Below are positions 26,590 through 49,420 of a DNA stretch of 64,000 bases, one piece after another; within the stretch, counting starts at the first letter, position 1, and every line of letters begins with the position of its first letter. The position numbers and the translations under genes were made by a program. A model generated the notes under the pieces. That model made no database searches, was not told the origin of the DNA, and saw only the letters and a program-made list of their open reading frames with translations. This DNA comes from Caecitellus pseudoparvulus (taxonomy: Eukaryota > Protista > Bigyra: Bicosoecida): the NCBI GenBank assembly GCA_965644315.1, contig CBFFRQ010000096.1:1-64000 (forward strand). The letters are read 5' to 3'.

Positions 26590-27271
26590 GGGGGGATGGC
26601 ACACGCACGGCGGTGCAATCCAGCAATAATGCCTACAAGTAGGCATTATTGCCTTAGATATATCAACAAATATATTATATAAAATTTCTTTTAATATGTG
26701 CTTATCTATATCATTAAATATATATAATTAAATATCAACGAAGTTAAAATATTATTAAAACTATTTAATAAACAACTAAGAAAAAGAAAAAGATAAATTA
26801 TATAATACTATCTTAATAATATCTGCGAAGCTATGATTTATACGCTTTAGCGTGTAAATCTCTAATATGATAATTTTAATTATCCTATCATTCATAACTA
26901 TGATATATCTAAACTATATTTAAATATAATGTTCTTAAAAATGTTCTAAATAAAGTTCAAAAAAATCAATACAAAATTTATAAAAATGAAAGAGTATAAG
27001 ATAAAATTTAAAAAAGTTCAAAAAGTTCAAAAGTTCAAAGGGATTTCTAAGATTTCAAAAAAAAATATTTCAAAAAAACCAAAATGCTTGAATTCTTGAA
27101 CTTTTTGAACAGCAATATAATAAAAATGAAGGAGTTAAAATTTCCAAAAAAATAATAAAAAAATATATCTCAATAAAAATAATGAGGATTTTTTGAACTT
27201 TCTGAACAAAACCAAAAATGAACGAGCCATAAATTATATATATACAAACATTTATAAAAAAAATAGGTTTA
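26590..27271 (+). repeat. Left terminal inverted repeat of the virus (682 bp)
   Basis: Reverse complement of 48734-49415 at every segment compared by eye, from GGGGGGATGGCACAC to AAATAGGTTTA. Confidence 0.95.
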
Positions 27272-27290
27272 TTTGTCAGTTTAAAAATTA

Positions 27291-27294
27291 TCTA
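27291..27294 (+). promoter_or_regulatory. TCTA giant-virus late-type promoter motif (one of 12 copies in the element)
   Basis: AT-flanked TCTA 10 nt upstream of ATG 27305. Confidence 0.7.
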
Positions 27295-27304
27295 AGTTAT
27301 ATTA

Positions 27305-27604
27305 ATGAGCTATATTAAAAGCAGTAATAAGAAATCTCAACAGAAAAAGAAAGAACCAGTCTATAGCACTGATGATGTTGATAGATTTGAATCTATGGAA
27401 CTTGAAACATTAGCCACAGAAATTGATAAGAAAGGAAGTAAGATAAAAGATATTAAAGCACTTCTCAAATCTCACAATAAAGAATATAAAGCAATGTATG
27501 AATTATTAAATGAAAAAATGATATCTCAGAATATAAATGAAATTCATGTTGGAGATAATATATATAGTCTCCGTAAGATTAAACAATTGGTGGTTGAAAA
27601 ATAA
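27305..27604 (+). CDS. Small viral coiled-coil protein resembling small NCLDV proteins (DUF5760-like)
   Basis: 99-aa ORF with TCTA promoter; helix followed by MISQNINEIHVGDNIYSL. Family call is tentative. Confidence 0.6.
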   Translation: MSYIKSSNKKSQQKKKEPVYSTDDVDRFESMELETLATEIDKKGSKIKDIKALLKSHNKEYKAMYELLNEKMISQNINEIHVGDNIYSLRKIKQLVVEK

Positions 27605-27621
27605 TTTTATAAATATATATA

Positions 27622-27894
27622 ATGATTGTTGAAATTAAAAAAAGCAATAGAAAAAATAAAAGATATGTTGCTATATTTGATGATGAAACAAAAACACATT
27701 TTGGATATGATGGAGGTCAAACATATTTAGACCATCACGATAAAACTAAAAGAGAAAATTATAGAAAACGTCATAAGAATGATTTGAAAACTAATGACCC
27801 TAAAAGAGCAGGGTATTTATCATACTATATTTTATGGGGTGAAGAAAAGGATTTAGACAGTGCAAAAAAAGCGTATAACAAGAAATTTTTTTAA
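27622..27894 (+). CDS. Tlr6F-like (DUF5754-like) protein typical of PLVs, virophages and NCLDVs
   Basis: KKSNRKNKRYVAIF...THFG...YLDHHDKTKRENYRKRH...AGYLSYYILW pattern. Confidence 0.75.
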   Translation: MIVEIKKSNRKNKRYVAIFDDETKTHFGYDGGQTYLDHHDKTKRENYRKRHKNDLKTNDPKRAGYLSYYILWGEEKDLDSAKKAYNKKFF

Positions 27895-27906
27895 TATGTT
27901 ATAATA

Positions 27907-28800
27907 ATGATAAATAATATATTAAAAAAAATGGGTATATTCAAAGGTCTTGATAAGGATGAATTAAAAGAAATAACCGATACACCAATAAAAGATAAGA
28001 AATATCAAACACCACATAGAAAAGCATTTAAAAAAGATGCTGTTCATTATACAGATTTACTAATGCTACCAAATGATAATGGTTACAGATACGCTCTAAC
28101 GGTTGTTGATTCTAGAACACGTTATGTAGATGCTGAACCATTAAAAACAAAAAAAGCAGCTGATGTATTAGAAGCATTACAAAAAATTTATAATAGAAGT
28201 TATTTAAATGATGTTGAGTATATTTTACATGTTGATAATGGAAGCGAATTCAAAGGTCAGTTTGCGAAATACTTCAAAGAAGAAGGTGTTATTTTAAGAG
28301 TTGCCAGAACGTCAAGACACCGACAACAAAGCGTTGTGGAACATTTAAATAATGTTCTTGGAAGAATGATAATGATTACACAACAAAGACAAGAATTAGA
28401 AACAGGAACTGAAAATAAAGAATGGGTTGAATTATTACCAGAATTTATTAAACAATACAATAATGAAATGAAAAAGAAACAAATAAAAGATAAAGTATTT
28501 TTTGAAATGGAACCAAAATTAAAAGGTGTCAAAGATATTTTAAAGAAAGGAACAAAAGTTAGATTACAATTAGATAGACCAGAAGACGTCAGAGGTAAAA
28601 GATTAAAAGGAAATTTCAGAGCAGGTGATATAAGATTTAGTATTAAAATATATACGATAGATGGTTTTTTAATAACACCAGGACAACCAATTATATATTT
28701 AGTAAAAGAAATACCATTTACAGGATTTACAAGAAATCAGGTAAAAGTTGTTGATGACAATGAAGCAAAAATAGATAAAATCACATTAGATTTTGATTAA
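27907..28800 (+). CDS. Retroviral-type (rve) DDE integrase
   Basis: Catalytic motifs YTDLL, HVDNGSEFKG and SVVEHLN, plus GYRYALTVVD and WVELLPEFIKQYN. ORF intact. Confidence 0.95.
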   Translation: MINNILKKMGIFKGLDKDELKEITDTPIKDKKYQTPHRKAFKKDAVHYTDLLMLPNDNGYRYALTVVDSRTRYVDAEPLKTKKAADVLEALQKIYNRSYLNDVEYILHVDNGSEFKGQFAKYFKEEGVILRVARTSRHRQQSVVEHLNNVLGRMIMITQQRQELETGTENKEWVELLPEFIKQYNNEMKKKQIKDKVFFEMEPKLKGVKDILKKGTKVRLQLDRPEDVRGKRLKGNFRAGDIRFSIKIYTIDGFLITPGQPIIYLVKEIPFTGFTRNQVKVVDDNEAKIDKITLDFD

Positions 28801-28834
28801 ATTAAATATAATATACTTTACTATATTTAATTTA
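28798..28834. terminator. AT-rich 13-bp hairpin at the integrase stop (giant-virus-type 3'-end hairpin)
   Basis: TAAATTAAATATA (28798-28810) and TATATTTAATTTA (28822-28834) form a perfect inverted repeat between convergent transcription units. Confidence 0.6.
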
Positions 28835-28946
28835 TATATATATATCAGCTACGAATCAATGGTGAGTATAAGAGTTTAAGCTGGTGACTATATCTTATAC
28901 CACAATATACTAGATATTATTTTTTTAAGTATGTTTTAAACCTATA

Positions 28947-29585
28947 TTATAAATTCTTTTGAAATGTTCTTAATTCATCTAATACATGCTTATATTTTAT
29001 TTTATGTTTATCTTTATAGTTTTGAATTTCTATATATTCTTTAAGAATTTTAGAAGACCATTTTAATTTTGGAAATAATGTTATGAAATCATAACAGAAA
29101 CAATCTTTTTTTTCTAGTAATCCCATATCCCATTTTTTATTAGGAAATTTATATAACCAATTAGTATTAAAATTATCAGATTCAGTAATAACTCCAAAAT
29201 GCCAATACATAAATGGGCAATCCCATCTCATATCAGGACATTCTATAACCCAAATAATATCAAAATTTTTACTAAGTGTCAATTCTACCATATCCCATTT
29301 CCTATCTGAAAATTGTTTTAAAAATTCAATATCGACAAAATCGTAAAAAAAGCTGCAAAAGTCCCATTTTTTATTAGGATATTTTTTAACAAATTCTAAA
29401 TCATCTTTTGTTTTAATAAAATGTGAAAGATAATAATAATCCCAATCTTTATGAGGATATTTTTTAACAAATTCAAAATCCAAATTATTTAACCACGATA
29501 TTTTTTGATAATCCCATTCTTTGTGTGGGTGTTCCATTATGTATTCCAAATCGCATTCATAATATTTAAATTCATTATTATTCAT
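28947..29585 (-). CDS. Viral repeat protein with about seven (K)YPxKxWD units
   Basis: EHPHKEWDY, KYPHKDWDY, KYPNKKWDF, QFSDRKWDM, ECPDMRWDC, KFPNKKWDM, LFPKLKWS. Confidence 0.8.
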   Translation of the reverse strand: MNNNEFKYYECDLEYIMEHPHKEWDYQKISWLNNLDFEFVKKYPHKDWDYYYLSHFIKTKDDLEFVKKYPNKKWDFCSFFYDFVDIEFLKQFSDRKWDMVELTLSKNFDIIWVIECPDMRWDCPFMYWHFGVITESDNFNTNWLYKFPNKKWDMGLLEKKDCFCYDFITLFPKLKWSSKILKEYIEIQNYKDKHKIKYKHVLDELRTFQKNL

Positions 29586-29622
29586 ATATATATACCTAGA
29601 TAAAATATATTTTTTAAACCGT
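29583..29622 (-). promoter_or_regulatory. Duplicated promoter block ACGGTTTAAAAAATATATTTTATCTAGGTATATATAT-ATG
   Basis: Near-identical copy at 29902-29938 and a partial copy at 46544-46568. Confidence 0.75.
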
Positions 29623-29625
29623 TTT

Positions 29626-29904
29626 TTAATTAAATCTGTTTCTTCTTTGTTCTTGTTTTTTCAAAGTTATATTAGAATTCTTTTTTATTATTTTTTTCAT
29701 TTTATTATATTCAATTCTTTTCATTTTCGGAGTTAGTGCTTTGAATGACTTTAAAAATTTTGGTTTCAATTTCTTAAATATTTTAATATTTTCTCTTATC
29801 AGTTCATTGGAATCTGTATAATTATCTGTTTCATCAAAGTAAAAATCATATACATTTATGAAATTATTAATATCGTTTATATTATTAATATCATACTTTT
29901 TCAT
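29626..29904 (-). CDS. Small basic viral hypothetical protein
   Basis: 92-aa ORF preceded by the TCTA promoter block. Confidence 0.65.
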   Translation of the reverse strand: MKKYDINNINDINNFINVYDFYFDETDNYTDSNELIRENIKIFKKLKPKFLKSFKALTPKMKRIEYNKMKKIIKKNSNITLKKQEQRRNRFN

Positions 29905-29940
29905 ATATATACCTAGATAAAATATATTTTTAAACCGTAT

Positions 29941-30504
29941 TTAGAATTTTTGTTTTAGTTTGAAAACACTTTTAATTAAAGCATACAAGGATTCGTAAGA
30001 ATCGAAAATATTTAGAACATCCTCGCCACATGCACTAATTAATTCCATACGTTTCCTCGACATTTGCTCAACATTTTCAGGATTTCTGCCTTCACAAATA
30101 GTATTAAATAATTTATTAGAAGGAGTAACCACAGCAATATTATTAACATCTACACCTAAATATTTTGCTTCATTTATACTAGAACAAACTAGAATTAATT
30201 TAAATTCTTTCATTTCGTTTTTAATTTTATCAACGTATTCTTTTGCCTTCATTAAGTAATTAACATCAGCATTAGTATCACCATCAACCGCAACACTTTG
30301 AGAGACATCAATTAAATATACACCACTTTCAGCCCTTAATTGTTTGCATAAAGTGCTTTTACCGGTCATACATGACATCACAATAGCACCAAAGCGAATT
30401 TTAGACCATTTCTTTTTTTTGCTTTTACCAAAACAATTGTAAGCAGTTTTAGCACCGATAGATACAAGACCTGCACCGAGCATTATTCCCGTTTCCATAT
30501 CCAT
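29941..30504 (-). CDS. Small P-loop kinase-like protein with an N-terminal hydrophobic/basic anchor
   Basis: FGAIVMSCMTGKSTLCK Walker-A-like motif followed by YLIDV. N-terminal GIMLGAGLVSIGA then KSKKKKW. Confidence 0.7.
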   Translation of the reverse strand: MDMETGIMLGAGLVSIGAKTAYNCFGKSKKKKWSKIRFGAIVMSCMTGKSTLCKQLRAESGVYLIDVSQSVAVDGDTNADVNYLMKAKEYVDKIKNEMKEFKLILVCSSINEAKYLGVDVNNIAVVTPSNKLFNTICEGRNPENVEQMSRKRMELISACGEDVLNIFDSYESLYALIKSVFKLKQKF

Positions 30505-30539
30505 ATATATATAATCTTAGATAATATTTTTTATATATT

Positions 30540-33110
30540 CTAATTTAATCTTGTAAAAGTAAATTCCATACGCATATTATAATAGAGATTTCTATTAATT
30601 GTTACGCCTGTGTGTATTTGTGATTCTTTAACATATAAGACAATTAATTCAAGGTCTGTTAATGCACCTTTATTAATTTCTGTTTCAATAGTTTGATTTG
30701 TATAACATCTAATATAATCAACACCAACAGTTTCATTAGGATATGATGGATATACACTAGTATCAAGAAGAACTTCATCAACACCATCAATAATATCACT
30801 TTTTTGTCGTGAATAATTTCTTGAATCTGTAATAGGTGTTGGATTTAAAAATAATCTTACTGGTTGGGGGTCAAGTGTTGTATTTGTATGATATTCAAGG
30901 ACTCTTATTTTTACTTTATAATTTCCGTTTGGTAAAAAGTTTAAATCATTTGATGAATAATATTGTTGTATTTCAAGATTTGAACTTCCAGAAGGGATAT
31001 TTCCAACTTTGGTGACATTTAAAATATAAGGGCGTATTGGTGCGATTCCTGTTAAATCAAATCCATTCATATTAATATTACCATAAACTTGAACCTGACC
31101 TTTATTATTTAGTTCTAGTACTTTTTTAGAATCATCTCCGCTAAAATCACCATTTAAATAAAAACTTGCGACGGAATCAGCTTGAACGCCTGTATTTCCT
31201 GCTTGATTATTTGTTGATAATGCTATATCTAGAACAGCCTCATTAATTACCCCTCCTTGTCCGCTCCTTTGTAATGATAAAACAGTTGATGGAGGGCTTG
31301 GATTTGCTCCTGTGCTTGTTTTTGTGGGTGAAGTATTAAAAATGTTTAAAACCCCACGGCTATCTAATCCTGCACCTGATAATGGAAGAGTCCCAACTTT
31401 ACCAACGTTTCTCATTTCGTTATTTCCTGTAAATGTATTATTAGCTCCAAGTGCTACAGATGAACCAACTAAACCATCCACATATCCTTTCGTCGCTGCG
31501 TCATCAGCATCAACAGGGGTAGCAAGACCATAAATAATATTATTTGACATATTAAAAGGTATTAATGATTGAACATTATTATGATTAATATTAAAAGTAT
31601 TTACAATTGTTCCACCACTGTTATTAAAAAATGAATGTTTATTATCCCCACTACCATTAACATATCTCATATTATTTGTTGCAGTTTGTGTTTCAATATA
31701 ATTGTTTGTTCCATCATCACTTCTTAATAATGTCATTTTTCTTGATTGAACGTCAGCACAACTCAAAATTTGTCCATTTGTATTCATATCAATATTTCCT
31801 GCCATCATGTGAAGCGTTCTATATCCTCTAATTTCATTATTTAAAATTGATAAAGATAATGAGGGATTCCCAATAACATTATTATAAAAGTTATGCTGAC
31901 TGGATGTCCCCCCACTCATATTATAATAGTTTAATGCACTGTTTGTTAATTCAAAGTATCCAGCACTCGTGTTACCATCAGGGCGAATAAGCGTTAATTT
32001 ATCTGTTTGAACGTCATTAGCATCTTTAATACTGCTATTTAGTGCCATTGTTATATCTCGTCTGGCTGTAATTGAATCAGGACCAATAAATAAAATTCCA
32101 CTATTTAAACCAGAATCACGGACATAAAACCGATGTTCTTTATCAACTACACTATTAGTATATATAATATTATTAAGTCCATCAGCGTTGATGCTTCCTG
32201 CTTTATTTCCATTACTTTGTAGTAGTGTTATTTCTTTTATTTCCACTTCATCTGTTGTCATTTTATCAGTGAAAGTTTTTTGACCTCCTATAGTTTGATT
32301 TGTTATTAAATTTACAGCATTATCATCTACATATTTTTTTGTTGCTGCTTCATCGTCATCTACAGGCTCAGCAAGACCATAAAGAATATTATTTGACATA
32401 TTAAAAGGTAGTAATGATTGAACGCTATTATAATTTATATTAAATGTATTTATTACAGTTCCAGAATTATTATTAAAAAATGAGTGTGTGCCATTTCCAC
32501 TTCCAACAACATATTTAAATATATGTGTTGATGGTTCGCTTTCTATAAAATTTGATGGGACACCATCACTTCGCATTAATATCATTTTATTAGTTTGTAT
32601 ATCTTGTTCAGTAATGAGGGTATTTGTGAAAGTTTTTTCACCCCCAACATTTTGATTACCTGATAATTTAACCGTATTATTATCAAATTGTTGTTTTGTA
32701 ATTGGTTCATTTTGGCTGTTTGCATCTCTCACCCTTACTGTGCCTAAATCATAAGGTTGTTCTAATGTTGTTAATGGTTCAGTTGAGGCATTATTATAAA
32801 CAATACCTACATCTTGACCGCTTTTAAATATTAACCCTTTATAACGTGTATTTCCTGCTATATTTTCTTTTGCAGTAAAACCAGTATCAGCATTGACAGC
32901 AGGTGTAGCATTATTAAATTCAACAATTGCATCTTTTACTTTGAATGTTTCAAGTTCATTAATGATTTCTTCTCCATCTACTTCTAAATTACCCGTAACA
33001 GTAATATTATTAAATGTAATATTTGGCTTTTCTTGAATAATTTCTAACATATCATCAGCAAGGCTTGACCCATCCATATTAAGGGAGAATGATTGTCGTG
33101 AATCGTCCAT
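30540..33110 (-). CDS. Modular virion fibre / receptor-binding protein
   Basis: Located after the penton. Asn/Gly/Thr-rich. Fibre-type motifs EAATKKYVD, DAATKGYVD, LSGNQNVGGEKTF and NQTIGGQKTF. Internal duplication of about 90 aa. Confidence 0.75.
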   Translation of the reverse strand: MDDSRQSFSLNMDGSSLADDMLEIIQEKPNITFNNITVTGNLEVDGEEIINELETFKVKDAIVEFNNATPAVNADTGFTAKENIAGNTRYKGLIFKSGQDVGIVYNNASTEPLTTLEQPYDLGTVRVRDANSQNEPITKQQFDNNTVKLSGNQNVGGEKTFTNTLITEQDIQTNKMILMRSDGVPSNFIESEPSTHIFKYVVGSGNGTHSFFNNNSGTVINTFNINYNSVQSLLPFNMSNNILYGLAEPVDDDEAATKKYVDDNAVNLITNQTIGGQKTFTDKMTTDEVEIKEITLLQSNGNKAGSINADGLNNIIYTNSVVDKEHRFYVRDSGLNSGILFIGPDSITARRDITMALNSSIKDANDVQTDKLTLIRPDGNTSAGYFELTNSALNYYNMSGGTSSQHNFYNNVIGNPSLSLSILNNEIRGYRTLHMMAGNIDMNTNGQILSCADVQSRKMTLLRSDDGTNNYIETQTATNNMRYVNGSGDNKHSFFNNSGGTIVNTFNINHNNVQSLIPFNMSNNIIYGLATPVDADDAATKGYVDGLVGSSVALGANNTFTGNNEMRNVGKVGTLPLSGAGLDSRGVLNIFNTSPTKTSTGANPSPPSTVLSLQRSGQGGVINEAVLDIALSTNNQAGNTGVQADSVASFYLNGDFSGDDSKKVLELNNKGQVQVYGNINMNGFDLTGIAPIRPYILNVTKVGNIPSGSSNLEIQQYYSSNDLNFLPNGNYKVKIRVLEYHTNTTLDPQPVRLFLNPTPITDSRNYSRQKSDIIDGVDEVLLDTSVYPSYPNETVGVDYIRCYTNQTIETEINKGALTDLELIVLYVKESQIHTGVTINRNLYYNMRMEFTFTRLN

Positions 33111-33157
33111 ATTATATATACATTATATAAAAATTTTTAGAGTTTATATAATATAAT

Positions 33158-33997
33158 TTAATAATGTTCTTTTTCTTTTCTAAACTGTTTAATTATTAGA
33201 GATAACTTAACACCACCACCCATAATTTTTAATGGTTCGTAATGGTCGTCTAATATAATAAAATCTAAATCAGTAATTTGAGAACTTAATAATAAATCAT
33301 GATTCCAAAATGTTTCATCATCACTAATAAAAGTTGAATATGTACCGGTTCCTGATTCAATATCAAAAGATACTAAAACAGGGAATTTGAGCCTATTATT
33401 ACCAGAACCAAAATATGAGTTGTTTAAAATTCCGTTCTTCATGCAAATATAAACTTTAGAAGTAGCAATAAGATTTGCATAATTTAGCCCAGACATATTA
33501 TTTGAGGGGTCAATTTTTAATGCATCACCGTCATTATCTTGAGATTGTGCGAATCCAATTTTACGCCAAAATTTACCATAATTACCAACAGTAGAAAATT
33601 TAATATAATTTGTATCATTATTTTCAATCTTTAATCTTAATGTTGCGGGGTCTTGTGTAATAACAACTGTTCCACCTAAACCATTAATAACACCTTGTAA
33701 ATAAGTTGCAAAATTTGCTGTAGATGAAAAAACTAAAGAATCAGGTATAGTATGTGTAGAAGTTGCCCCATTTTCAATCTCTACTTCAAATGTGTTTCTA
33801 TCTGTGTTAAATTGTGGAAATGTATTCGGGATGGATGCCGATTGAACTATTAAACGATTGATAACATTACCGCCACTTAAAACTAAAGGTGTAGTATTAA
33901 AATTGGTAGTCCACTCATAAGAAGTGTCTTCTTTTTGTTTATCAATCTCACTATTAATATAAATTTCTAATGTATTATTTATATCAATCAATGCCAT
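33158..33997 (-). CDS. Minor capsid protein (penton, single jelly roll)
   Basis: Directly downstream of the MCP. PLV/virophage penton-like motifs IYINS, SASIPNTF and ITDLDFIILDD...LSLII. 279 aa. Confidence 0.8.
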   Translation of the reverse strand: MALIDINNTLEIYINSEIDKQKEDTSYEWTTNFNTTPLVLSGGNVINRLIVQSASIPNTFPQFNTDRNTFEVEIENGATSTHTIPDSLVFSSTANFATYLQGVINGLGGTVVITQDPATLRLKIENNDTNYIKFSTVGNYGKFWRKIGFAQSQDNDGDALKIDPSNNMSGLNYANLIATSKVYICMKNGILNNSYFGSGNNRLKFPVLVSFDIESGTGTYSTFISDDETFWNHDLLLSSQITDLDFIILDDHYEPLKIMGGGVKLSLIIKQFRKEKEHY

Positions 33998-35276
33998 ATA
34001 TAAGACTATAGAAAATAATAAAATAAAACTAAACTTTATTATTTTATATATATAACAATTATATTTATTCTACAACTTGTGCGGAACCTTTACCTAATTC
34101 TAACTGTCTTTTAAATCTGTATAAGCATACAAGTTGTTTTGATGCTGAGTCAGTAATTGCTTCGGGAGTATTAAATTCAGTAACTAATACACTAGTACCA
34201 ACGAGAGAATTAAAGCCATTAGATACAGCATTTTGAGAATCTTCCGGAGTTTTTAAGAATAAACCGCCTAAATATTGACATGTATTAGTTGATTGAACCA
34301 TTTGTTTAGAGTATTCAGAAGCATAAGAACGAGAATAGAAATCAGGTTTAGCACATCTAACGACACCTTCAAAATGGTCTACGTAATTAGATTCACTTTG
34401 TGCACCATTTACATTAACGTAATCTTGACCGGTAAACTGTAAGCGATAATCAGAAACATAATTTAAATTACCATTAACAAAAGAGTAATCACGAACTGGG
34501 TCAAAAGTTGCAGCAGAAATGTTTTTAAGTTTATTAGCACCTGGTACAGTTTTATATACAGGGAAAATTAAAGAACTAATAATATCACGTTTTTTAATAT
34601 TGAATTGATGAGCATGTGTAGTTCCTAACGCAATAGTTTGAAACTGGCAATCATAACCGTGGAAACGATTTACAATACCTTTAGTATTTGTACCCATAGG
34701 AGAGACTTTTTTTAACATTACTTGAGAGCCCAAATCAGTGAGGTGATATGCTTCAAAAGTAAATTTAAGATTAGACAAAGTATAAGAAATATCAGTAGCA
34801 CCAGTTGGTGGTGTAGAACCAGCTTTAAATAATAAAGGCAAATTATCTTTGAATACTATTTGAATATCAATAGGTGTAGATGATGTAGGTAGTAATTTTT
34901 TTAAGTCTAATCCAAAATCTCTTAATGGAATTGAGAATGAATAACTTTTAGTACCATCCGCAACTAATTCAACGTCTCTTAAGGTGCGTCACGGATTGGT
35001 GGATCAAGGCGAGATACCAACGGCTTGTGTCAATCCTGTGAGATCAACACATCGACTTAGAATCTTTCTATGTTTGCGCTAGTTGACTGTCGGGAAAAAG
35101 AGAATGTACCATGCCTGAGGAACTGTTTTAGCCATTTTGGCGAGATCAACGAGCCGAACCTTGATTTTTTGCCCCAGGCGTTAGTGAGAAAGGGGTCGCA
35201 CGCTGTCGAGACAGGAAATCAACCCTGAGAGAGTCAGCACTGCAAGAGCGGCGATTAGGACTCTGGAAATCAAGCA

Positions 35277-37459: not shown

Positions 37460-37464
37460 AACAA

Positions 37465-40020: not shown

Positions 40021-40758
40021 TTATTCAGGAAATCCATTAAATATTTCTTCCATTTTTTTATTATATACTTTACCAGTTTTTTTGTTAATTAAAATGAAAC
40101 TATATTTTTCAGATAAATGATTAAATACTAAATCCTTAAATTCATCTTCATTCATGAACTGACTAAAGTTTTCATCGTATACTTTCCAACATTCTTTATC
40201 GTTAGCATTCCAATATAATGAAATCAAATTACTGTTTAACATTCTTACGTCCTGCCCTAGATAATAATATTTTTGAGTTGCTATAATACATCCACAGCGT
40301 TTATGCCGTCCTGATGCAAAGAGCTCACTTAGTAAATTTGTGCCGTGATTTGTATTCATTGCTTTATTATATGCCATATCATCAAAAATAAACAAATTCG
40401 GAACTTTTGCGTCCATACTTCTATATTCTCCATCTAATTCTTCCCAGTCTAGAGTTTTATATATACTCAATTGGTCTTCACTAATATCAAACTTTTGAGC
40501 CATTTTAATAATATTATTTATTGTGGTTTGAGTTCCTGATACAACAATAATTTTAGATGAATCATTTTTAAAATAAAAATCTTTACACCATTGCCATAAT
40601 ACATTATGAATAAATTGTGTTTTACCTGCCTCAGATGGTCCCACTAAAACAGCCCTAGGAAGAGCTCCGACACGCTTATCAATTAAGTCTTTGTATTTTT
40701 TGTCTTTTGTTATATCATCCTCTTCAAATTCAAAAACTTTAAATTCACTATTAGCCAT
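40021..40758 (-). CDS. A32/FtsK-HerA genome-packaging ATPase
   Basis: Walker A VLVGPSEAGKT, Walker B LFIFDD, and ELFASGRHKRCGCIIATQKY (GRH and TQ motifs). Confidence 0.95.
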   Translation of the reverse strand: MANSEFKVFEFEEDDITKDKKYKDLIDKRVGALPRAVLVGPSEAGKTQFIHNVLWQWCKDFYFKNDSSKIIVVSGTQTTINNIIKMAQKFDISEDQLSIYKTLDWEELDGEYRSMDAKVPNLFIFDDMAYNKAMNTNHGTNLLSELFASGRHKRCGCIIATQKYYYLGQDVRMLNSNLISLYWNANDKECWKVYDENFSQFMNEDEFKDLVFNHLSEKYSFILINKKTGKVYNKKMEEIFNGFPE

Positions 40759-40779
40759 TATTATATATTAGATATTTTT

Positions 40780-42915
40780 TTATCTTTTTAAAACCCGCCC
40801 TCTAGTTCTTCTTCTTCCTTGTGTGGGTGCTACAAAATCTGCCTCTTGTAATGGTTCTGCTTCTTTTGCTTCTCCATCTGCCTCTAATGTTTTATTGTTA
40901 TTTATTAATGTTATTATTTTTCTTGTTAATCTTGGTTTTCCTAATTTCATTAAATCTTCGTTTGCGTCTGGTTCAACTTTATATAATGCTTTCATAAATA
41001 TCAATGTTGCGTCTTCAAAAGAGACATCCGCCAACCCTATAATTTCAGTAAATATTTCTGATGGTTCCCCTTCAATTACTGCCTGATAAATATCATCTGA
41101 TACTTCTCTTTTTGCTGCTTCTGATACTCCACCTTCACCTATTACTTCAGCTATAAATTTATCTAACATTGAGTTTAATTTTACTTTCTCAACTTCGGTT
41201 AAATCTTTTTTATATGATTCGTCTTTTTCCGGTTGTGCTTCGGCAGGTGCTGCTGCTCCACCTTCAGTTTCTGGTATTGGTTTTCGTGGTAATCTTACAC
41301 TAACACTTTCAGAAATATCTTCAAAAGTACGTTTTGCATACTCCTTTTTATTTTCTCCAGCTATTTCAACAGGTAAATTTGCTTTTAATAATTCAATTAC
41401 ATTTCTTACAATTTGACCTAATTTTTCATTATTTTGTGATATTGGTAATTGTCCTATTCTTTCTGCTTCATTCATGATAGCATCAAATAAATATATTTTA
41501 TATTTTACCATACCAGTCTTTTTCGCATTATAAATATCTTTTCCAATATTTTTATTGTTTTTATTTGTAAGATTTGACAAATTTTTCAATTGATTTGTTT
41601 CTTCTTTATCTACCATAACTTTAGCATATGCTTTTAGAATGGTGTTATAATTTCCCTGATTAAAATTAATAAATGTTTGTTTTCCTTCTTTTTCCAACTT
41701 TTCTTCTAATGCTTTTCTAACATCTAAATTTGAAATAACAATAATTTTTTGAGGGTCAGTTAAATCCATATATCTTGGATGTTGTTGGATAGCTGCCCTC
41801 ATTGTTGTTGAGGTTGTGGTCCCACTTCTGATATCTTCACCGTATAATAGATTTAAATCAGTGTCTGTGAATTTGTTTTTATCCATATCATCTTCAAGAG
41901 CAGATTTTGCATGTTTTGTTAATTCTTCAAATCTTTGAATAACTTGTGGTCTACCACGACCTAAAGAATTTATTACATTTGCAATTGAAGCTGACATAGA
42001 TTCACCAAGTCTTTTATATGATTCAAGTTGTTGTGTTTCTCTCGCTGTTTTCATTTCTGCTTCTATTCTATCTAAAAACGCTTGATTAATTCTTTCGCCT
42101 TCTGTTCCTGCTCCAGTTGCTGCTGGTGCTGGTGCTGGTTGTGGTGCTTCAGGTTGTAATACTTGTCCTTCTCCTTCTGGTTGTGGTCTTCTTTCCTTTG
42201 TTGCATCAGTTTCTTTAGATTCGGCAGCTCCACCGTCTCCAACTTGTCCTGTTTCTGTATGAATTCCACCATCTGTATCTATCATTGTTTTAGCTTGTAA
42301 ATCTCCCTCATCTCTCTTATCTTTATCATCATCTCCTCCATCTCCTGTTGCTGGAGGTTTTGTGTCTCCATCTGTTGAAGGTTTATTTAAAATAGATTGA
42401 ACTTTTTGTTCCATTTCTTGTTTCTTAGCATTCAAATCTAAACCAACTGGGTTAAAACGTTTCTTTAATACTGATTCAACGGCACGTGCTCTTAATAATT
42501 GAATTTCTGTATCTGATAAATTATTTCTTTTACCAAATGCATCAATATAATTTAAGATTCGTTTCATTTCCTCTTCATCTTCATCTAATTCTTCAACATC
42601 TGTTTCTAATCCTAATTGTCTAAATACACGTTTTGTGTCTTGTTCGTATTCATTCATTTGTTTCATGAAAGCTTGTTCTAAAGATTCTGTATCACTCCAT
42701 CCATAATCATAAAAAGAACTTTCTTCTAATCTCTTATCTGCATTTGTATATACCTCATCCATATCTAAAAAATCGGGTTTCTCTGCTGGTGCTGGTATTA
42801 AGTCTTCAGCATTGTAATTATACAATTTTAAATTTACTGTATCAGTGTTGTTTTCCAAATTCAATTTAGATAAGCGAACATAATATTCTTCATCTGTTAT
42901 ATCAAATGGGTTCAT
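40780..42915 (-). CDS. Large acidic viral protein of unknown function (candidate core/structural polyprotein)
   Basis: 711-aa ORF with TCTA promoter, upstream of the ATPase. Disordered linkers with repeated (D/E)GG. Basic C-terminus. Confidence 0.75.
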   Translation of the reverse strand: MNPFDITDEEYYVRLSKLNLENNTDTVNLKLYNYNAEDLIPAPAEKPDFLDMDEVYTNADKRLEESSFYDYGWSDTESLEQAFMKQMNEYEQDTKRVFRQLGLETDVEELDEDEEEMKRILNYIDAFGKRNNLSDTEIQLLRARAVESVLKKRFNPVGLDLNAKKQEMEQKVQSILNKPSTDGDTKPPATGDGGDDDKDKRDEGDLQAKTMIDTDGGIHTETGQVGDGGAAESKETDATKERRPQPEGEGQVLQPEAPQPAPAPAATGAGTEGERINQAFLDRIEAEMKTARETQQLESYKRLGESMSASIANVINSLGRGRPQVIQRFEELTKHAKSALEDDMDKNKFTDTDLNLLYGEDIRSGTTTSTTMRAAIQQHPRYMDLTDPQKIIVISNLDVRKALEEKLEKEGKQTFINFNQGNYNTILKAYAKVMVDKEETNQLKNLSNLTNKNNKNIGKDIYNAKKTGMVKYKIYLFDAIMNEAERIGQLPISQNNEKLGQIVRNVIELLKANLPVEIAGENKKEYAKRTFEDISESVSVRLPRKPIPETEGGAAAPAEAQPEKDESYKKDLTEVEKVKLNSMLDKFIAEVIGEGGVSEAAKREVSDDIYQAVIEGEPSEIFTEIIGLADVSFEDATLIFMKALYKVEPDANEDLMKLGKPRLTRKIITLINNNKTLEADGEAKEAEPLQEADFVAPTQGRRRTRGRVLKR

Positions 42916-42961
42916 ATATATAATAGTAGATAAAAAAAATTATATATCTAAACATTTTAAT

Positions 42962-43459
42962 TTAATTATGTTCTTTCTCCATTGCCGCCAAGATATCATC
43001 AATATTGTATTTTTCTATGCTATTATTAATAGGTTGTTTTTCCGGAATTATTTGAACTCTTTTTATTTCGTGTTGTTTCTTCTTTTTATTTATTTTTTCC
43101 AAGTATTCCTCAAATTTCTTTTCTTCTGCTTCTTGTTTCTTCTTCTCCCTTCTTTTTCTATATGTTTCTCTTGATTTCTCTCTTGCTTTCCTTAATGCTT
43201 CTAGTTTCTTTTCCGATAATTGCTTTTTCTTCTTCTTTTTCTTTCCGGATTCTTTTATTATAATTGGTTTTTCTTCTATAGGGTCTTCAGTCTCTATAAT
43301 TTTTTCAGTCTTTTTTTCAGTATTTTTCAGATATTTTTTAGTATATATAGTCTCTGAATTCTCTATACTTTTTTTTAGAGGTTCTTTAAACTCATCAAAT
43401 GGCTGACCGAATATGTTAGAAAAAAAGGTTTTCACACTTTGAAAGATTTTAGGTTCCAT
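42962..43459 (-). CDS. Lys/Glu-rich viral coiled-coil protein
   Basis: 165-aa ORF containing LSEKKLEALRKAREK. Confidence 0.7.
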   Translation of the reverse strand: MEPKIFQSVKTFFSNIFGQPFDEFKEPLKKSIENSETIYTKKYLKNTEKKTEKIIETEDPIEEKPIIIKESGKKKKKKKQLSEKKLEALRKAREKSRETYRKRREKKKQEAEEKKFEEYLEKINKKKKQHEIKRVQIIPEKQPINNSIEKYNIDDILAAMEKEHN

Positions 43460-43479
43460 TATAATAAAACATAAAATAT

Positions 43480-43740
43480 TTATTCCGATTCTTCTTTTTC
43501 CTGTTTTTTGTTTCTCTCTTTCTCCATTTCCACAAATTCTTTATATGTCAAATATTCACATGTAAAATCTAAATGGCTTACTAAATGATAATCATCAGCA
43601 TTTTTAATTATTTTCATTTTCTCTTCATGAATATATTTTAAAGTGTCAATATATTTATTATATTCTTCTTCAGTTGGTATTTTTCCATCAAAAGGGTCTT
43701 CAAAATTATACTCTTTATATCTACAGAAATTATTAGACAT
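43480..43740 (-). CDS. Small viral hypothetical protein
   Basis: 86-aa ORF with TCTA 10 nt upstream. Confidence 0.65.
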   Translation of the reverse strand: MSNNFCRYKEYNFEDPFDGKIPTEEEYNKYIDTLKYIHEEKMKIIKNADDYHLVSHLDFTCEYLTYKEFVEMEKERNKKQEKEESE

Positions 43741-43744
43741 TATT

Positions 43745-44596
43745 TTAAACTAGATTATTTTTTTTTTTAAAACCTATTGATGGTTCAAATATACTACCAC
43801 CTCTTGAAGGCGTCACGTTATTTATTAAATAATCTATTGAATGTGCTTCAACTAAATTACTTGGTCCTGGTCTTGGTTTTAATACTATAGTTTCTGGTAT
43901 TAATGCAATTGATGATTCAGCTATGATATCACCCTCCATAACATAAGAACGAATAATATTTGAATCAAATATTTTTTTTAGATTGTTTTTAATACCTTCT
44001 AATTTTTCACCGATTTCATCTGCCCCTTTTCTTACTGCTTGTGTAGGTGATGAACCTATATTAAAAACTATTGCTGGAATACCTGTTTCTGATGATGCTA
44101 AAACTGCAATAAATCCACCTAATGAATGACCTGTAAAAATAAATTCTTGAACGTTCATGCTACTCAATACACTCATTATTTTTGTTAATCTTTCAACACT
44201 TGCTATTTTAATAATTGACTTATCAGAACCTAGAATAATTGCTAAATCATCCATAAAATCTACTGGGTTTAATTGTGTTCCTCTAAATCCTATAATTGCT
44301 TTTACTTTATCGCCTTCTAAATCTAAATATACGGCTATTCTATTACTTGATAATGTTTCATTATATATTAAGTTCTCTAAGATTGGTTTTCTTTCGGTTT
44401 TTGTTTTATATGCTTCACGTGATACTTTAGCACATTGATAAGCTTCATATGGTATAATTGGTTTATATGTTCCACGGTTTGAATTGTTCTTATTTGTATT
44501 TCTACTTACGGTTGAGACCTGTAATGGCTGTTCGTCAGCAGGATTTCCAAGAAAAAAATCATTAAAACCATCAACTAATAATTTGATACCTTCCAT
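43745..44596 (-). CDS. Class 3 lipase-like alpha/beta hydrolase
   Basis: IIGFRGT, FTGHSLGG nucleophile elbow, GDII (Asp) and AHSI (His). Confidence 0.92.
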   Translation of the reverse strand: MEGIKLLVDGFNDFFLGNPADEQPLQVSTVSRNTNKNNSNRGTYKPIIPYEAYQCAKVSREAYKTKTERKPILENLIYNETLSSNRIAVYLDLEGDKVKAIIGFRGTQLNPVDFMDDLAIILGSDKSIIKIASVERLTKIMSVLSSMNVQEFIFTGHSLGGFIAVLASSETGIPAIVFNIGSSPTQAVRKGADEIGEKLEGIKNNLKKIFDSNIIRSYVMEGDIIAESSIALIPETIVLKPRPGPSNLVEAHSIDYLINNVTPSRGGSIFEPSIGFKKKNNLV

Positions 44597-44647
44597 TATA
44601 TTAATAAAGAAAATAAATATAACTTATTTTATTAAAACAAATTATAT

Positions 44648-46546
44648 TTAATATTTGATTTTATTTTCAATATCCATTCCATTCACACTTCTAATAGATA
44701 TTTTATCTGCTGTATATTCAATCTTTAATCCACCCATATCAACTTTTGATAATTCTTTATCATTTCCTATACCTTTAATTTTTGTTATATTTATATCTCC
44801 ATCACATATAAAACCATCTGTATGACATCTATATATTTTATCATGTTCTAAATTTTCCATTATTCTTGAAATATACACACGCCCCATACCTGTTAAAAAT
44901 GGAGCAATTCTTGCCATAGGTGTTTTATAATATTGTTTTTGCTTTGCATTAAATAAGTGTGTATCATTATAAGGATGTATTCCTTCAATATCATTTGAAC
45001 CACCTTTATATTTTTCATATGTTTCAATATAAACATTTCTCTGAGATAATAACCCCCATAATTTATTTAATAACATTTTTGATACTTTGTTTTTTGGATT
45101 CTTCTTTTTTAGGTCGTAATGGTCATTAATATATTTTCCGAATAATTGTTTGCCTGATATTAAATCTTTTCGGTCATACATTATAGCATTACAGCCTACA
45201 TCATCTCTCATATGAATTGTGTATCCTAATTCACGAGCACGATTTAATTCATAATGTGTATAAAAATCATTGTTTTTGGTGTTGAAAAGTAATTTATTTA
45301 CATTTCCTAAAATTTCTGCTCTATAGATTCCATATTTAAAATATTCTGGTAATTGTTTATTTTCAATTGTTGTATATTGACCTTCTCTTAATGGAAACAT
45401 TACTTTGGCAGATTGCATTATATAAGGATACATTGAATTGACATCATAACATTTGACATTTTCATAAACTCCCTCTTTGAAATGTAATAAACCACCTGTT
45501 AAACAATATTTAATAAAGTTTGATTCTTTTTCTGATATATTCTCCATTCTAACTTTTTGAAAATTATAAAACATTTGTTGTAAAATATAACCTGTTATAC
45601 TTTTATAGTTGAGTAAATCTAAATTTAATTCTTTGACATATTGTTTATATTTTTTATATTCTTCTATTAAATCTTTATCAGGTTTTACATTGTGAAAATG
45701 ACGTTTTTCATATTTCAATATGTTTTGTTGAAAATCTACATAATCATATGTTTTAATTTGTAATCCATCATAAGCATCAACAACATTTTTTGATATTTTA
45801 TATACTAGTAATGGATATTCATTTTTATTTTTTCTTATTACTTTGAAACCTTCTTGTTGTTTATAAATGTTTGTATAATGTCCGTTCTCTAATTTTAAAT
45901 CAACATTTATATTTGAATCATAAGACGAAATATAAGTTGAACGTTCAGAAGAACCAAATACATTTATTCTTATATTTAGTTTCTCTTCTAATTTAGGTAT
46001 TAGAATTACAGGAACTTTAGCTTCTCTATCTAATTTTAAATAATTCTTTAATCTCTTAGGGTATTTCATATTTGGAATATCTCCAATAACTCGTTTAATA
46101 CAATTATATAAACAATCATTATGTTTATCGCTTCCTCCTTCTGTGCTTGTATCTTTATAAGTAATTGATATCATATGTGTCCCTAAATCATCTAATAAAT
46201 TCATATCTTCACCATCTGTATATTCATCAGCAAATTTCTTGATACTTAGTTTTTTAGGGTCAGATGAAAAACCTTTGTTAATTGATTTCCAACCAATATC
46301 TAATAATACTGCAACATGAAATTCTTTATTCTTCTTTTTCATTTCTTTTGTTATTGTTTTAATGAATTTATCTGAATCATCAACTGAACTTTTTTGATTT
46401 TTCTTAGATGAAATATAATTCATAACTTTTAATTTTTCACCATTTTTTAGTTTTAGTTCTCTTCCTTTGAACTGTCTGAACTTTTTAAAAATCTTTTTTT
46501 GAGATTTCTTGGATTTCTTGGAATTGTTATTTTTGGTTCGTGGCAT
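44648..46546 (-). CDS. polB: Protein-primed family B DNA polymerase with N-terminal terminal-protein region and OTU-like protease domain
   Basis: YDVNSMYP, KMLLNKLWG and HTDG polymerase motifs. OTU-like HNDCLYNC ... ENGHY. Confidence 0.95.
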   Translation of the reverse strand: MPRTKNNNSKKSKKSQKKIFKKFRQFKGRELKLKNGEKLKVMNYISSKKNQKSSVDDSDKFIKTITKEMKKKNKEFHVAVLLDIGWKSINKGFSSDPKKLSIKKFADEYTDGEDMNLLDDLGTHMISITYKDTSTEGGSDKHNDCLYNCIKRVIGDIPNMKYPKRLKNYLKLDREAKVPVILIPKLEEKLNIRINVFGSSERSTYISSYDSNINVDLKLENGHYTNIYKQQEGFKVIRKNKNEYPLLVYKISKNVVDAYDGLQIKTYDYVDFQQNILKYEKRHFHNVKPDKDLIEEYKKYKQYVKELNLDLLNYKSITGYILQQMFYNFQKVRMENISEKESNFIKYCLTGGLLHFKEGVYENVKCYDVNSMYPYIMQSAKVMFPLREGQYTTIENKQLPEYFKYGIYRAEILGNVNKLLFNTKNNDFYTHYELNRARELGYTIHMRDDVGCNAIMYDRKDLISGKQLFGKYINDHYDLKKKNPKNKVSKMLLNKLWGLLSQRNVYIETYEKYKGGSNDIEGIHPYNDTHLFNAKQKQYYKTPMARIAPFLTGMGRVYISRIMENLEHDKIYRCHTDGFICDGDINITKIKGIGNDKELSKVDMGGLKIEYTADKISIRSVNGMDIENKIKY

Positions 46547-46576
46547 ATATATATACCTAGATAAAATAATTTTTTT

Positions 46577-46777
46577 TTAAACCCCTTTTTTAAGATTGTT
46601 TTCCATATTCCTTATATGTTTTTTGGTTCTACAATGTTTAGGAAACTTATATTTTGGCACATATTTATCACAACATTCACAATATATTTTGCGTTTCATT
46701 TTTTCTAGTATACGCTCCTTATTTTCTGCATAGTATTCTTTTTGATATTTTTTCATATCCGTGATTTTCTTTTTCAT
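46577..46777 (-). CDS. C2H2-type zinc-finger protein
   Basis: YCECCDKYV...KHCRTKKH. TCTA upstream. Confidence 0.8.
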   Translation of the reverse strand: MKKKITDMKKYQKEYYAENKERILEKMKRKIYCECCDKYVPKYKFPKHCRTKKHIRNMENNLKKGV

Positions 46778-46830
46778 TACACTTATATAGATTATTTATT
46801 TTTTAAACCTAAAATAAATAATATATATTT

Positions 46831-48705
46831 TTAAAATTCTAGAATTATTTTACCAACTGTTAATCCATCAAATTTTTTTAATGCTTTCTTTGATGTATCG
46901 TCTTTTGGTTCAAATTTATCTTCTTCGTCGTATTCGTCGTCGCTTTCTTCATCTTCACTATCACTCTCTTCTTCACTATCGCTCTCAACTTCCACTGGTT
47001 TAGTTTCACTTTCAATATCAACTGGTTTATTTTTAAGTTGTTCTTGTAATTCTTTTAGTTGTTTTTGTAATTCTTCAATAATTTTATTACTAGTTTCATT
47101 CTTTTTGGTTAATACATTATTTTTACTAATTAATATTTTAATTTCATCTCTTAACGTATCATCATCTTCACCATCAAATATATCTTCGTCTTTTTCTTCT
47201 TTATCAATTTTTACTTTAATATGTGTAAATAAACCTTTCTTTCTTTTTATTCCATATAAATTTTGTTGTTCTTTATTGCAGTATTTTTCACTAACATAAT
47301 TAATATCATGTGCTTTCATATCATTTACAAATGATTTCATGCCTAATTTTTCATATTCTGAATTGAAACTTTTAAACATTTCCAATAATGCTTCTTTTGG
47401 TATTGTGTCTGTTTCGTCTGTGGTAAGTTCTAAACATGTTTCAATAAATTCATCATACGGGTCATTAGTATTTAAAAACTCTTTAGTTGATAATTGAATT
47501 TTCTCGGGTGTCTCTGGTAAATTTGTATTAATACTTTTTACGGTATATTCTATTAAAATTTTAATCAGAGCACATTTTAATTGTGTATTATCAAATTTAT
47601 CAATTAATTTATTATCCTTTCTAAAATACTTAATATTATCAACTTTTCTTTTATCATTTTCTTCTAAAAATATATTTTCCATTGATATAACTTCAGTTCT
47701 CCTTGATACACCACCATCAATATCAATTTTTAATGTTGCCTCGTTGGTTAAAATAAATATAAAACCGTTGAGAATTGTGTTAAATTGTCCATCAGTAAAT
47801 AATCTTGAAACTGTAATATTTCCATTTGCTAATTGTTTGAAAATAGATTTCTTCATTTTCTTTTTACCTTGTTCGTCAATAATTAAAAATTTATGATATG
47901 GTTGAATTGAGTTAATAATTTTAGATGGTTTGTTTCCGTCAGTATCAGCAGTTAGTAATGCATTCTCTAATTCTTGGACCATATAAGGAAATACTTTTTG
48001 GATTAATTCAAATAATGTATTTTTACCATTTGACCCTTTACCGGTTAAGATAAAGTTCTTTTGCATTTTTGTTATTGATTTGCCTAAAATTACACGACTT
48101 AACATATCATACATATAACCCATATCATCCTTATTAAAAAATGAGGTTAAAACATTATCAACATATTTTACTGATTCTTGAGATGGTTCAACATAATTAT
48201 AGTTTAATAATGTCGCTTGTGTAATAATAGTATTCTTTGGACGTGTTGTTGAAAATTCACCTGTTGTCAAATCTAAACGACCATTTAAAAAATTCAATCC
48301 TGTATTATCACTATCAAAAATTATTGAATCATTCTTAAATATGTTGTGAAGACCAGAACATAAATTATTAAGTTTATTTAAATTAATCAATGATGAGATT
48401 TTTAATTGTATTAAATTTGCATATGATTCTTTATCGGTTTCGTATATCTTGTTTAATGATGCTGTCATACAATTATACAAATAATTATAAAAGATTTTTT
48501 CTGCTGATAATTTTTCATCATGTAATTTTCTGTATGTTCCATTATCACATTTTACATATACATTGTTTTGATTAATAATAACATATTCTTTAAATAAATC
48601 TATCAATACATTTTGTCTATCAATGAATTCCTTTTTAAAATTTAGAAAATCATTAAAAGTAAAGAGTTTGTTAAATTCGTTTGTGGTTTGATTTATAGCT
48701 GTCAT
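46831..48705 (-). CDS. Superfamily 3 (D5-like) helicase
   Basis: LNFLNGRLDLTTGEF (D5_N-like), Walker A GKGSNGKNT, Walker B IIDE, motif C ILTN and IDGGVSRR. Coiled-coil and acidic tail. Confidence 0.93.
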   Translation of the reverse strand: MTAINQTTNEFNKLFTFNDFLNFKKEFIDRQNVLIDLFKEYVIINQNNVYVKCDNGTYRKLHDEKLSAEKIFYNYLYNCMTASLNKIYETDKESYANLIQLKISSLINLNKLNNLCSGLHNIFKNDSIIFDSDNTGLNFLNGRLDLTTGEFSTTRPKNTIITQATLLNYNYVEPSQESVKYVDNVLTSFFNKDDMGYMYDMLSRVILGKSITKMQKNFILTGKGSNGKNTLFELIQKVFPYMVQELENALLTADTDGNKPSKIINSIQPYHKFLIIDEQGKKKMKKSIFKQLANGNITVSRLFTDGQFNTILNGFIFILTNEATLKIDIDGGVSRRTEVISMENIFLEENDKRKVDNIKYFRKDNKLIDKFDNTQLKCALIKILIEYTVKSINTNLPETPEKIQLSTKEFLNTNDPYDEFIETCLELTTDETDTIPKEALLEMFKSFNSEYEKLGMKSFVNDMKAHDINYVSEKYCNKEQQNLYGIKRKKGLFTHIKVKIDKEEKDEDIFDGEDDDTLRDEIKILISKNNVLTKKNETSNKIIEELQKQLKELQEQLKNKPVDIESETKPVEVESDSEEESDSEDEESDDEYDEEDKFEPKDDTSKKALKKFDGLTVGKIILEF

Positions 48706-48733
48706 ATATATATTACTAGAGATTTTTTTTTTT

Positions 48734-49415
48734 TAAACCTATTTTTTTTATAAATGTTTGTATATATATAATTTATGGCTCGTTCATTTTTGGTTTTGTT
48801 CAGAAAGTTCAAAAAATCCTCATTATTTTTATTGAGATATATTTTTTTATTATTTTTTTGGAAATTTTAACTCCTTCATTTTTATTATATTGCTGTTCAA
48901 AAAGTTCAAGAATTCAAGCATTTTGGTTTTTTTGAAATATTTTTTTTTGAAATCTTAGAAATCCCTTTGAACTTTTGAACTTTTTGAACTTTTTTAAATT
49001 TTATCTTATACTCTTTCATTTTTATAAATTTTGTATTGATTTTTTTGAACTTTATTTAGAACATTTTTAAGAACATTATATTTAAATATAGTTTAGATAT
49101 ATCATAGTTATGAATGATAGGATAATTAAAATTATCATATTAGAGATTTACACGCTAAAGCGTATAAATCATAGCTTCGCAGATATTATTAAGATAGTAT
49201 TATATAATTTATCTTTTTCTTTTTCTTAGTTGTTTATTAAATAGTTTTAATAATATTTTAACTTCGTTGATATTTAATTATATATATTTAATGATATAGA
49301 TAAGCACATATTAAAAGAAATTTTATATAATATATTTGTTGATATATCTAAGGCAATAATGCCTACTTGTAGGCATTATTGCTGGATTGCACCGCCGTGC
49401 GTGTGCCATCCCCCC
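48734..49415 (-). repeat. Right terminal inverted repeat of the virus (682 bp)
   Basis: Mirror of 26590-27271, ending GTGTGCCATCCCCCC. Confidence 0.95.
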
Positions 49416-49420
49416 CCCGG

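Follow-up and report, generated by a model that had tools for sequence, protein, structure and literature searches.

A protease-less Polinton-like virus integrated in the genome of Caecitellus pseudoparvulus combines mavirus-type replication genes with a positioned TCTA motif

Among the closest described systems are mavirus and the type 4 endogenous mavirus-like elements (EMALEs) found in Cafeteria burkhardae (PMC8547959, PMC10945749). The giant virus CroV has as its late motif TCTA with A/T on its flanks (PMC5294985, PMC8547959), a TCTA late motif is also found in ChlorV of chlorarachniophytes (PMC13196603), and the only EMALE type reactivated on CroV infection is the one that bears TCTA (PMC10945749). 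Polinton-like viruses (PLVs) that act as virophages are also known: PgVV (Gezel-14T; bioRxiv 2022.07.28.501842), the reactivated PLVs Tsv-S2a/S3b of Tetraselmis (bioRxiv 2025.10.09.676808), and a PLV of C. parva (PMC12945077; the available part holds nothing on promoters, pPolB, integrase or protease). Here we describe an integrated virus at positions 26590-49415 of a 64-kb stretch of Caecitellus pseudoparvulus DNA (contig CBFFRQ010000096.1, positions 1 to 64,000; hereafter the window). It is a PLV with a compact capsid of the double-jelly-roll (DJR) type, no protease, and mavirus-type replication and integration genes, and it probably lives as a virophage of a giant virus with a CroV/ChlorV-type TCTA late promoter.

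The 17 genes of the element are tightly packed, with intergenic gaps of <=146 bp throughout, the nested insert described below excepted. They lie between 683-nt terminal inverted repeats (TIRs; 26589-27271 and 48734-49416) that are 100% complementary and end in G6/C6 runs, bordered by a target duplication of 4 bp (CCCG), or of 5 bp (CCCGG) if the runs differ by one. The virus inserted as an rve-encoding element with perfect TIRs. Without the nested insert it is 18,282 bp long and has 27.1% GC; within it GC is 22-33%, compared to ~57-68% in the flanks (host DNA ~62%), and it appears as two AT-rich blocks (~26.6-35.0 kb and ~39.5-49.4 kb) in an otherwise GC-rich eukaryotic window.

Mavirus and the type 4 EMALEs are, like this element, ~18-20 kb long, bounded by TIRs and poor in GC within a GC-rich host, and they have in common with it rve, an exonuclease-less pPolB, an SF3 helicase, the TCTA motif and nested transposons. 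They differ in that the element has a 447-aa non-virophage capsid protein, no protease, TCTA before 12 of its 17 genes instead of every one, and a DDE DNA transposon where EMALEs have Ngaro. The endogenous PLVs of another bicosoecid, Halocafeteria seosinensis (bioRxiv 2026.07.28.741278), are likewise protease-less, have TIRs, share rve and pPolB with co-resident virophages, sit in repeats and are invaded by DNA transposons; their host has 47% GC, and the CroV-like promoter described in the text of that preprint belongs to one virophage subclade, with none reported for the PLVs. PgVV is similar in its PLV capsid, virophage lifestyle, lipase, fibre and Tlr6F-type genes, and differs in having a tyrosine recombinase, TVpol, an early AAAATTGA motif and an algal host. 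The Tetraselmis viruses share the PLV capsid, the virophage lifestyle and inducible endogenous copies, again in an algal host.

A reading made earlier from the sequence alone (the sequence-only reading) had assigned a 447-aa major capsid protein (MCP) to the element and placed it outside the lavidaviruses. The gene is indeed of the DJR capsid type, but it is not an intact open reading frame (ORF): 142 and 305 codons flank a 4,544-bp insertion that the earlier reading left unmentioned. The two halves can be aligned along their whole length with uninterrupted relatives of 445 and 443 aa, to which the C-terminal half is 93% and 90% identical, respectively. The family is small, with 17 representatives among 1.84 billion sequences, all but the nearest being 362-443 aa long with 24-31% identity. 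None of 18 family members had a curated Pfam match, the virophage MCP families (PF21915) included; as a control, the Sputnik-type MCP of the metagenomic locus L002 matched PF21915 (E 1.7e-20). Profile comparison of the family with that control MCP gave no match (hhalign probability 0.1%), and PDB sequence searches returned nothing for the MCP or the helicase. An AlphaFold model of the intact 93%-identical relative (pLDDT 83) showed a double jelly roll, with which Foldseek agreed, and was closest to a PBCV-1 capsid chain (Z 28.5), followed by faustovirus (26), iridovirus (23), Sputnik (18.1) and mavirus (17.5). The predicted structure thus shows a capsid protein with the DJR fold that is not of virophage type, as had been proposed.

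Single-protein scans confirmed no relatives of the MCP in viral or metagenome contigs, and none of the ATPase or pPolB in viral contigs. MCP clusters 15 and 16 of Symbiodinium sp. KB8 (PMC10120064) were considered as this family and rejected, being dinoflagellate-group clusters; two short motifs were not found in the available part of that paper's supplement. The Halocafeteria PLVs have MCP cluster 10 of the same paper, and the N-terminus of its 469-aa representative (Table S3) resembles this family by eye only.

The 279-aa ORF next to the MCP gene is likely a penton or minor capsid protein by size and position, with an hhalign probability of 3%. It did not match the virophage penton family PF21507, a model that may miss divergent pentons; the control L002 penton did (E 4e-8). 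Regarding the maturation protease, the absence claimed earlier was borne out when all unassigned ORFs and gaps were checked. There was no Pfam match to adenain, and each unassigned ORF lacks Cys or His, lacks a His..Cys pair at protease spacing, or is the seven-repeat protein, the only one of them with both Cys and His. The only protease-type Cys-His pair in the element is in the vOTU-like domain of pPolB. A protease hidden among the ORFs was therefore rejected on Cys/His content and the short gaps. As for the remainder of the proposed capsid module, the packaging ATPase, an A32-type member of the FtsK-HerA family, is present; the MCP has the expected fold in a split gene; the fibre is recognized by weak PHROG matches, and the likely penton by a weak profile match.

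These results bear on whether the element might be a highly diverged lavidavirus, a relative of mavirus whose capsid has shrunk and whose protease has been lost. Such an origin would be in keeping with the joint presence of mavirus-type pPolB, rve, SF3 helicase, lipase and TCTA. It is at odds with a capsid structure that resembles non-virophage DJR proteins more than it does mavirus or Sputnik, the failed profile match to the Sputnik-type MCP (0.1%), the lack of a virophage penton match that the L002 control does show, the missing protease, and a polymerase family that is not tied to one capsid type. We regard this origin as very improbable and largely refuted.

Applying the four-gene set of the ICTV study group (PMC9952930), the element is taxonomically a PLV and not a virophage. 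The virophage MCP, adenain-like protease and virophage-type penton of virophages sensu stricto (Lavidaviridae / Maveriviricetes) were not found by Pfam, hhalign or structure, whereas it does have a divergent DJR MCP, a packaging ATPase and a length within 15-30 kb with TIRs, as PLVs do, and PLVs usually lack a protease too. Mavericks/Polintons also carry pPolB, rve, MCP and ATPase between TIRs. In the strict sense they have an exonuclease-bearing full-length pPolB and a protease; here the polymerase is the short 632-aa mavirus type, adenain is missing, and the DJR-like Pfam family matched by a Polinton-type control locus (L007) has no match. By structure and gene content, though not by phylogeny, the element falls with pMVRE group 1 (PMC13215967), sharing a palm-retaining, truncated, mavirus-related pPolB, an SF3 helicase, rve and varied MCPs; that group was set by its pPolB tree, and the available part of the paper gives no promoter analysis.

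The earlier description of the replication genes as mavirus-like was upheld by the polymerase in particular. The best match of the pPolB model in BFVD was mavirus pPolB over its whole length (E 2.5e-43, TM 0.64); the next were at 8e-21 (partial) and 3e-8 (an adintovirus), with adenovirus and phage enzymes far behind. Residues C145 and H223, a pair we read as a vOTU domain, and the palm motifs are invariant across 15 aligned sequences. This fits the TP-vOTU-palm arrangement that has been called unique to mavirus-like pPolB and that occurs in maviruses alongside a separate SF3 helicase (PMC11161782). Judging from the model, the label is both correct and specific. A search of a phage collection yielded one weak match for pPolB and none for rve. 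The other members of the predicted set, namely rve, SF3 helicase, zinc finger and lipase, were all found by Pfam/PHROG matches or Cys/His content.

What did not hold was the suggestion of a distinct hybrid lineage. We fetched 82 loci carrying this pPolB family, keeping 80 of 170 metagenome matches, and seven long ones have a capsid gene or a candidate of capsid size. L002 carries the Sputnik-type MCP and penton, L007 a Polinton-type DJR capsid with a C5 protease, and L037 an MCP related to that of this element (hhalign 95.7%). The remaining four (L001, L039, L048 and L049) have unrelated MCP candidates of 408-457 aa, judged by size and position; those of L001 and L039 had no detectable relation to this MCP family. 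Capsid types are interleaved in the pPolB tree (64 sequences; the rve tree has 26), and the nearest pPolB relative is L004 (support 0.97). Both trees were made with FastTree and midpoint rooting, leaving out ORFs of <420 aa (pPolB) and <250 aa (rve); they lack mavirus and have weak deep nodes, and they speak to intermixing only, not to the direction of transfer. In print, pPolB and MCP histories differ with extensive intermixing (PMC13215967), and 28 viruses with pPolB and rve are spread across at least 8 clusters (PMC7805220), both in agreement with the public contigs. Going by these gene combinations, the mavirus-type pPolB is not tied to one capsid type.

The sequence TCTA was found at -13 to -18 of the start codon in 12 of the 17 genes, compared to 37 of the 629 ATGs elsewhere in the element (Fisher p 4e-11), and in antisense at this position in 0 of 17. 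This interval was chosen after seeing the data, and the enrichment was therefore retested with a free 7-nt window, all 256 4-mers and 1000 shuffles. TCTA was the top 4-mer, with 12 genes; the shuffles averaged 3.4 and never exceeded 7 (family-wise 0/1000). Counted anywhere within 50 nt, it was only weakly enriched (13/17; shuffle mean 7.6, maximum 13), and the evidence is thus positional. Among 29 related loci of >=5 kb, TCTA preceded most genes only in L004 (6/9) and L017 (7/11). Equally AT-rich loci had none at this position (L013, 0/5; L014, 0/8; L019, 0/8), and the enrichment is therefore not a composition effect. L004 repeats the promoter layout and shares the 187-aa gene of this element.

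The giant-virus-type motif of the sequence-only reading is thus real and positioned. Its CroV-like partner stands in a wider form, since ChlorV shares TCTA: the motif suggests a partner of CroV/ChlorV type in general, not CroV itself, and none can be named. We found no report of a TCTA late motif in a PLV, in a literature search whose coverage left out most subscription papers and preprint supplements. Both L004 and L017 are marine or aquatic metagenome contigs with a mavirus-type pPolB and the same TCTA layout; the helicase of L004 is of another type, with DEAD/AAA-like matches, instead of D5-like.

Several observations weigh against dependence on a giant virus. Five of the 17 genes (those for DUF5754, rve, fibre, the 165-aa ORF and lipase) have no TCTA at this position, while a review states that all mavirus genes carry the motif (PMC6723459). 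The second most enriched 4-mer is TATA, and in DNA this rich in AT a 4-mer such as TCTA might serve the element itself as a signal for host RNA polymerase II. A link to Cafeteria and CroV would be conjectural. An autonomous lifestyle has been ascribed to at least one PLV, TsV-N1 (bioRxiv 2026.07.28.741278), and the only PLV virophage with a described promoter uses early AAAATTGA, not TCTA (bioRxiv 2022.07.28.501842). In this element that early mimivirus motif was not present upstream of genes, its four sites all being inside ORFs.

A second element, GGTTTAAAA (GGTTT+AAAA), occurs at eight sites. Seven of these are placed 32-37 nt ahead of a gene start, and the genes so preceded include those for pPolB, helicase, zinc finger and ATPase. 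The eighth site (28934-28942, minus strand, within 28800-28945) is followed by TATCTAG with no ORF behind it, and is either the leftover promoter of a lost gene or that of a short non-coding RNA. Together, TCTA and GGTTTAAAA might form the own promoter of an autonomous, nucleus-replicating PLV like TsV-N1, read by host RNA polymerase, with the likeness to CroV due to convergence or a relic. The element does encode its own polymerase and helicase, AT/TATA is enriched next to the starts, and GGTTT+AAAA does not figure with the giant-virus motifs given in the available parts of the cited papers; the five genes without TCTA fit as well. However, a Pfam search found no RNA polymerase or transcription factor among the 17 genes, the host with its ~62% GC is unlike these promoters, and the motif agrees in sequence, A/T flanks and position with the one that predicts EMALE reactivation (PMC10945749). 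We consider an autonomous PLV unlikely.

As a PLV living as a virophage, which we hold to be the likeliest course, the element would stay silent in the host genome until infection by a giant virus, whose machinery for late transcription would then read the TCTA sites, and the element would excise. Protein-primed replication would proceed from the TIRs by pPolB and the SF3 helicase, with packaging through the A32 ATPase and re-integration through rve; this copy would take its capsid protein in trans from an intact sibling. We infer both the giant-virus dependence and the host defence, and protection of the host population, a predicted further step, has in our estimate a little less than an even chance. 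The concept of a PLV as a virophage with swapped replication modules and inducible defence is already in print, which limits the surprise. In this respect the virophage-like, inducible-defence PLV envisaged earlier is sound as an idea and has been demonstrated for other PLVs (bioRxiv 2022.07.28.501842, 2025.10.09.676808), but the capsid gene of the present copy is disrupted.

Should the dependence be real, the giant-virus partner of a PLV could be predicted from its promoter motifs, as is the case for EMALEs, and two capsid lineages without relation to each other would use a CroV-type late promoter. Few PLVs have a known replication strategy, and the element makes a direct prediction that is testable in a culturable host. 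A more tentative and rather doubtful extension is that a marine PLV lineage with a capsid not described before has come by convergence to the full mavirus strategy of mavirus-type polymerase, rve integration and CroV-type late promoter. It would share host and giant virus with true mavirus-type virophages and form a second, protease-free layer of inducible defence in a Cafeteria-like flagellate; GGTTTAAAA, ~20 nt before TCTA on replication genes and some others, would set the timing within the giant virus's programme.

The split MCP gene is a further point against reactivation of the copy at hand. Because a transposon divides the gene, this copy is probably unable to build capsids alone, and its reactivation as a particle would require help. 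We examined public sequencing runs (numbered X) through their contigs. In X1 and X3, the closest to the window, the contigs listed read into the transposon at the MCP, and the joints listed include none across it. An interrupted gene and the lack of such a joint among those listed for these two runs are what might be seen if the element were a Polinton-like transposon or decaying relic moving without particles, its promoters being inherited leftovers. On the other hand, the TIRs are 100% identical, all ORFs other than the MCP are open, and capsid relatives are intact at 90-93% identity. Furthermore, at the insertion site X6, X8 and X12 have contigs from which precisely 4,544 bases are missing, and one X7 contig joins the MCP halves across it; intact capsid genes thus exist in these four other samples. 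We find the relic explanation quite improbable.

These 4,544 bases exceed the 4,540-bp transposon by a net 4-bp TTAA duplication, and TTAA is present on both sides (34979-34982 and 39523-39526). PIF/Harbinger elements usually make 3-bp duplications. The DDE_Tnp_4 transposon was also found between other flanks in X5 and X6, and a tiny derivative joining both of its TIRs across 13 bases was found in X1, X3 and X12. Runs X7 and X8 are aquaculture metagenomes in which viral contigs are present and host flanks have little or no cover; this would fit free virus, but missing cover proves nothing and was not counted, and differences in depth among virus, transposon and flanks do not give copy numbers.

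Table 1. Features of the integrated virus and its surroundings in window positions.
Feature	Position	Strand	Basis or remark
hAT-like host element holding the virus	25631..50917		22-bp TIRs, 8-bp duplication ATTTTGGC
Left TIR	26590..27271	+	G6 end; CCCG before at 26586-26589
99-aa ORF, no assigned function	27305..27604	+	TCTA at -14
DUF5754 protein	27622..27894	+	profile match E 1.2e-14
rve integrase, 297 aa	27907..28800	+	PF00665 E 2e-8; D-D-E motifs present
212-aa protein, seven PxKxWD-type repeats	28947..29585	-	repeat content
92-aa ORF, no assigned function	29626..29904	-	ORF list
187-aa P-loop-like protein	29941..30504	-	common to relative L004, 30% identity, E 5e-26
856-aa fibre-like protein, internal repeats	30540..33110	-	PHROG tail-fibre matches, all weak
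Likely penton / minor capsid, 279 aa	33158..33997	-	size, position, weak profile match
MCP C-terminal 305 codons	34065..34982	-	aligns with intact relatives
Nested DNA transposon, 4,540 bp	34983..39522		56% GC, ~27-nt TIRs
DDE_Tnp_4 transposase in nested transposon	35316-37118	+	Pfam
Second ORF of nested transposon, opposite strand	37465-38886	-	ORF
MCP N-terminal 142 codons	39527..39952	-	TCTA at -18
A32-family packaging ATPase	40021..40758	-	Pox_A32 E 1e-4
711-aa acidic ORF, no assigned function	40780..42915	-	without Cys
165-aa basic ORF, no assigned function	42962..43459	-	without Cys
86-aa ORF, no assigned function	43480..43740	-	ORF list
Class 3 lipase	43745..44596	-	Lipase_3 E 1e-4; GHSLGG
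Mavirus-type protein-primed DNA polymerase, 632 aa	44648..46546	-	DNA_pol_B_2 E 4e-11; palm motifs intact
Zinc-finger-like Cys/His protein, 66 aa	46577..46777	-	Cys/His content
D5-like SF3 helicase, 624 aa	46831..48705	-	D5_N E 1.5e-4; PHROG primase-helicase E 9e-26
Right TIR	48734..49415	-	CCCG after at 49416-49419

Among the remaining genes, the DUF5754 protein is one we take to be Tlr6F-like. The Atlas clusters nearest to the 212-aa repeat protein are mostly Nucleocytoviricota, a weak lead with recognition below threshold; the gene could be shared with giant viruses, much as FNIP repeats occur in both mavirus and CroV. Each TIR contains a 30-nt near-perfect palindrome 33 nt from its end (26623-26652 and 49353-49382). 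TIR variants with several substitutions (over 26681-26798) were found on contigs of X1 and X3, and related elements with similar ends thus exist in those runs.

The locus is a three-layer nest, in which the hAT-like element contains the virus and the virus contains the DDE_Tnp_4 transposon. The hAT-like element is 2,461 bp long once the virus is removed, and virus-free copies of it are represented by contigs of public runs that read through the virus insertion site. In the flanking host DNA, the protein encoded at 52484-53740 matches without a difference, along 391 aa, an NCBI entry that bears the label Symbiodinium sp. KB8 and comes from a contig of 7.6 kb. Host genes in the window are long uninterrupted ORFs, and dinoflagellate genes are intron-rich; there is a hint here of DNA from a passenger other than a dinoflagellate in the Symbiodinium sp. 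KB8 assembly, and our guess is a small heterotrophic flagellate, possibly Cafeteria-like, living in that culture. The same assembly also holds four mavirus-type MCPs (PMC10120064).

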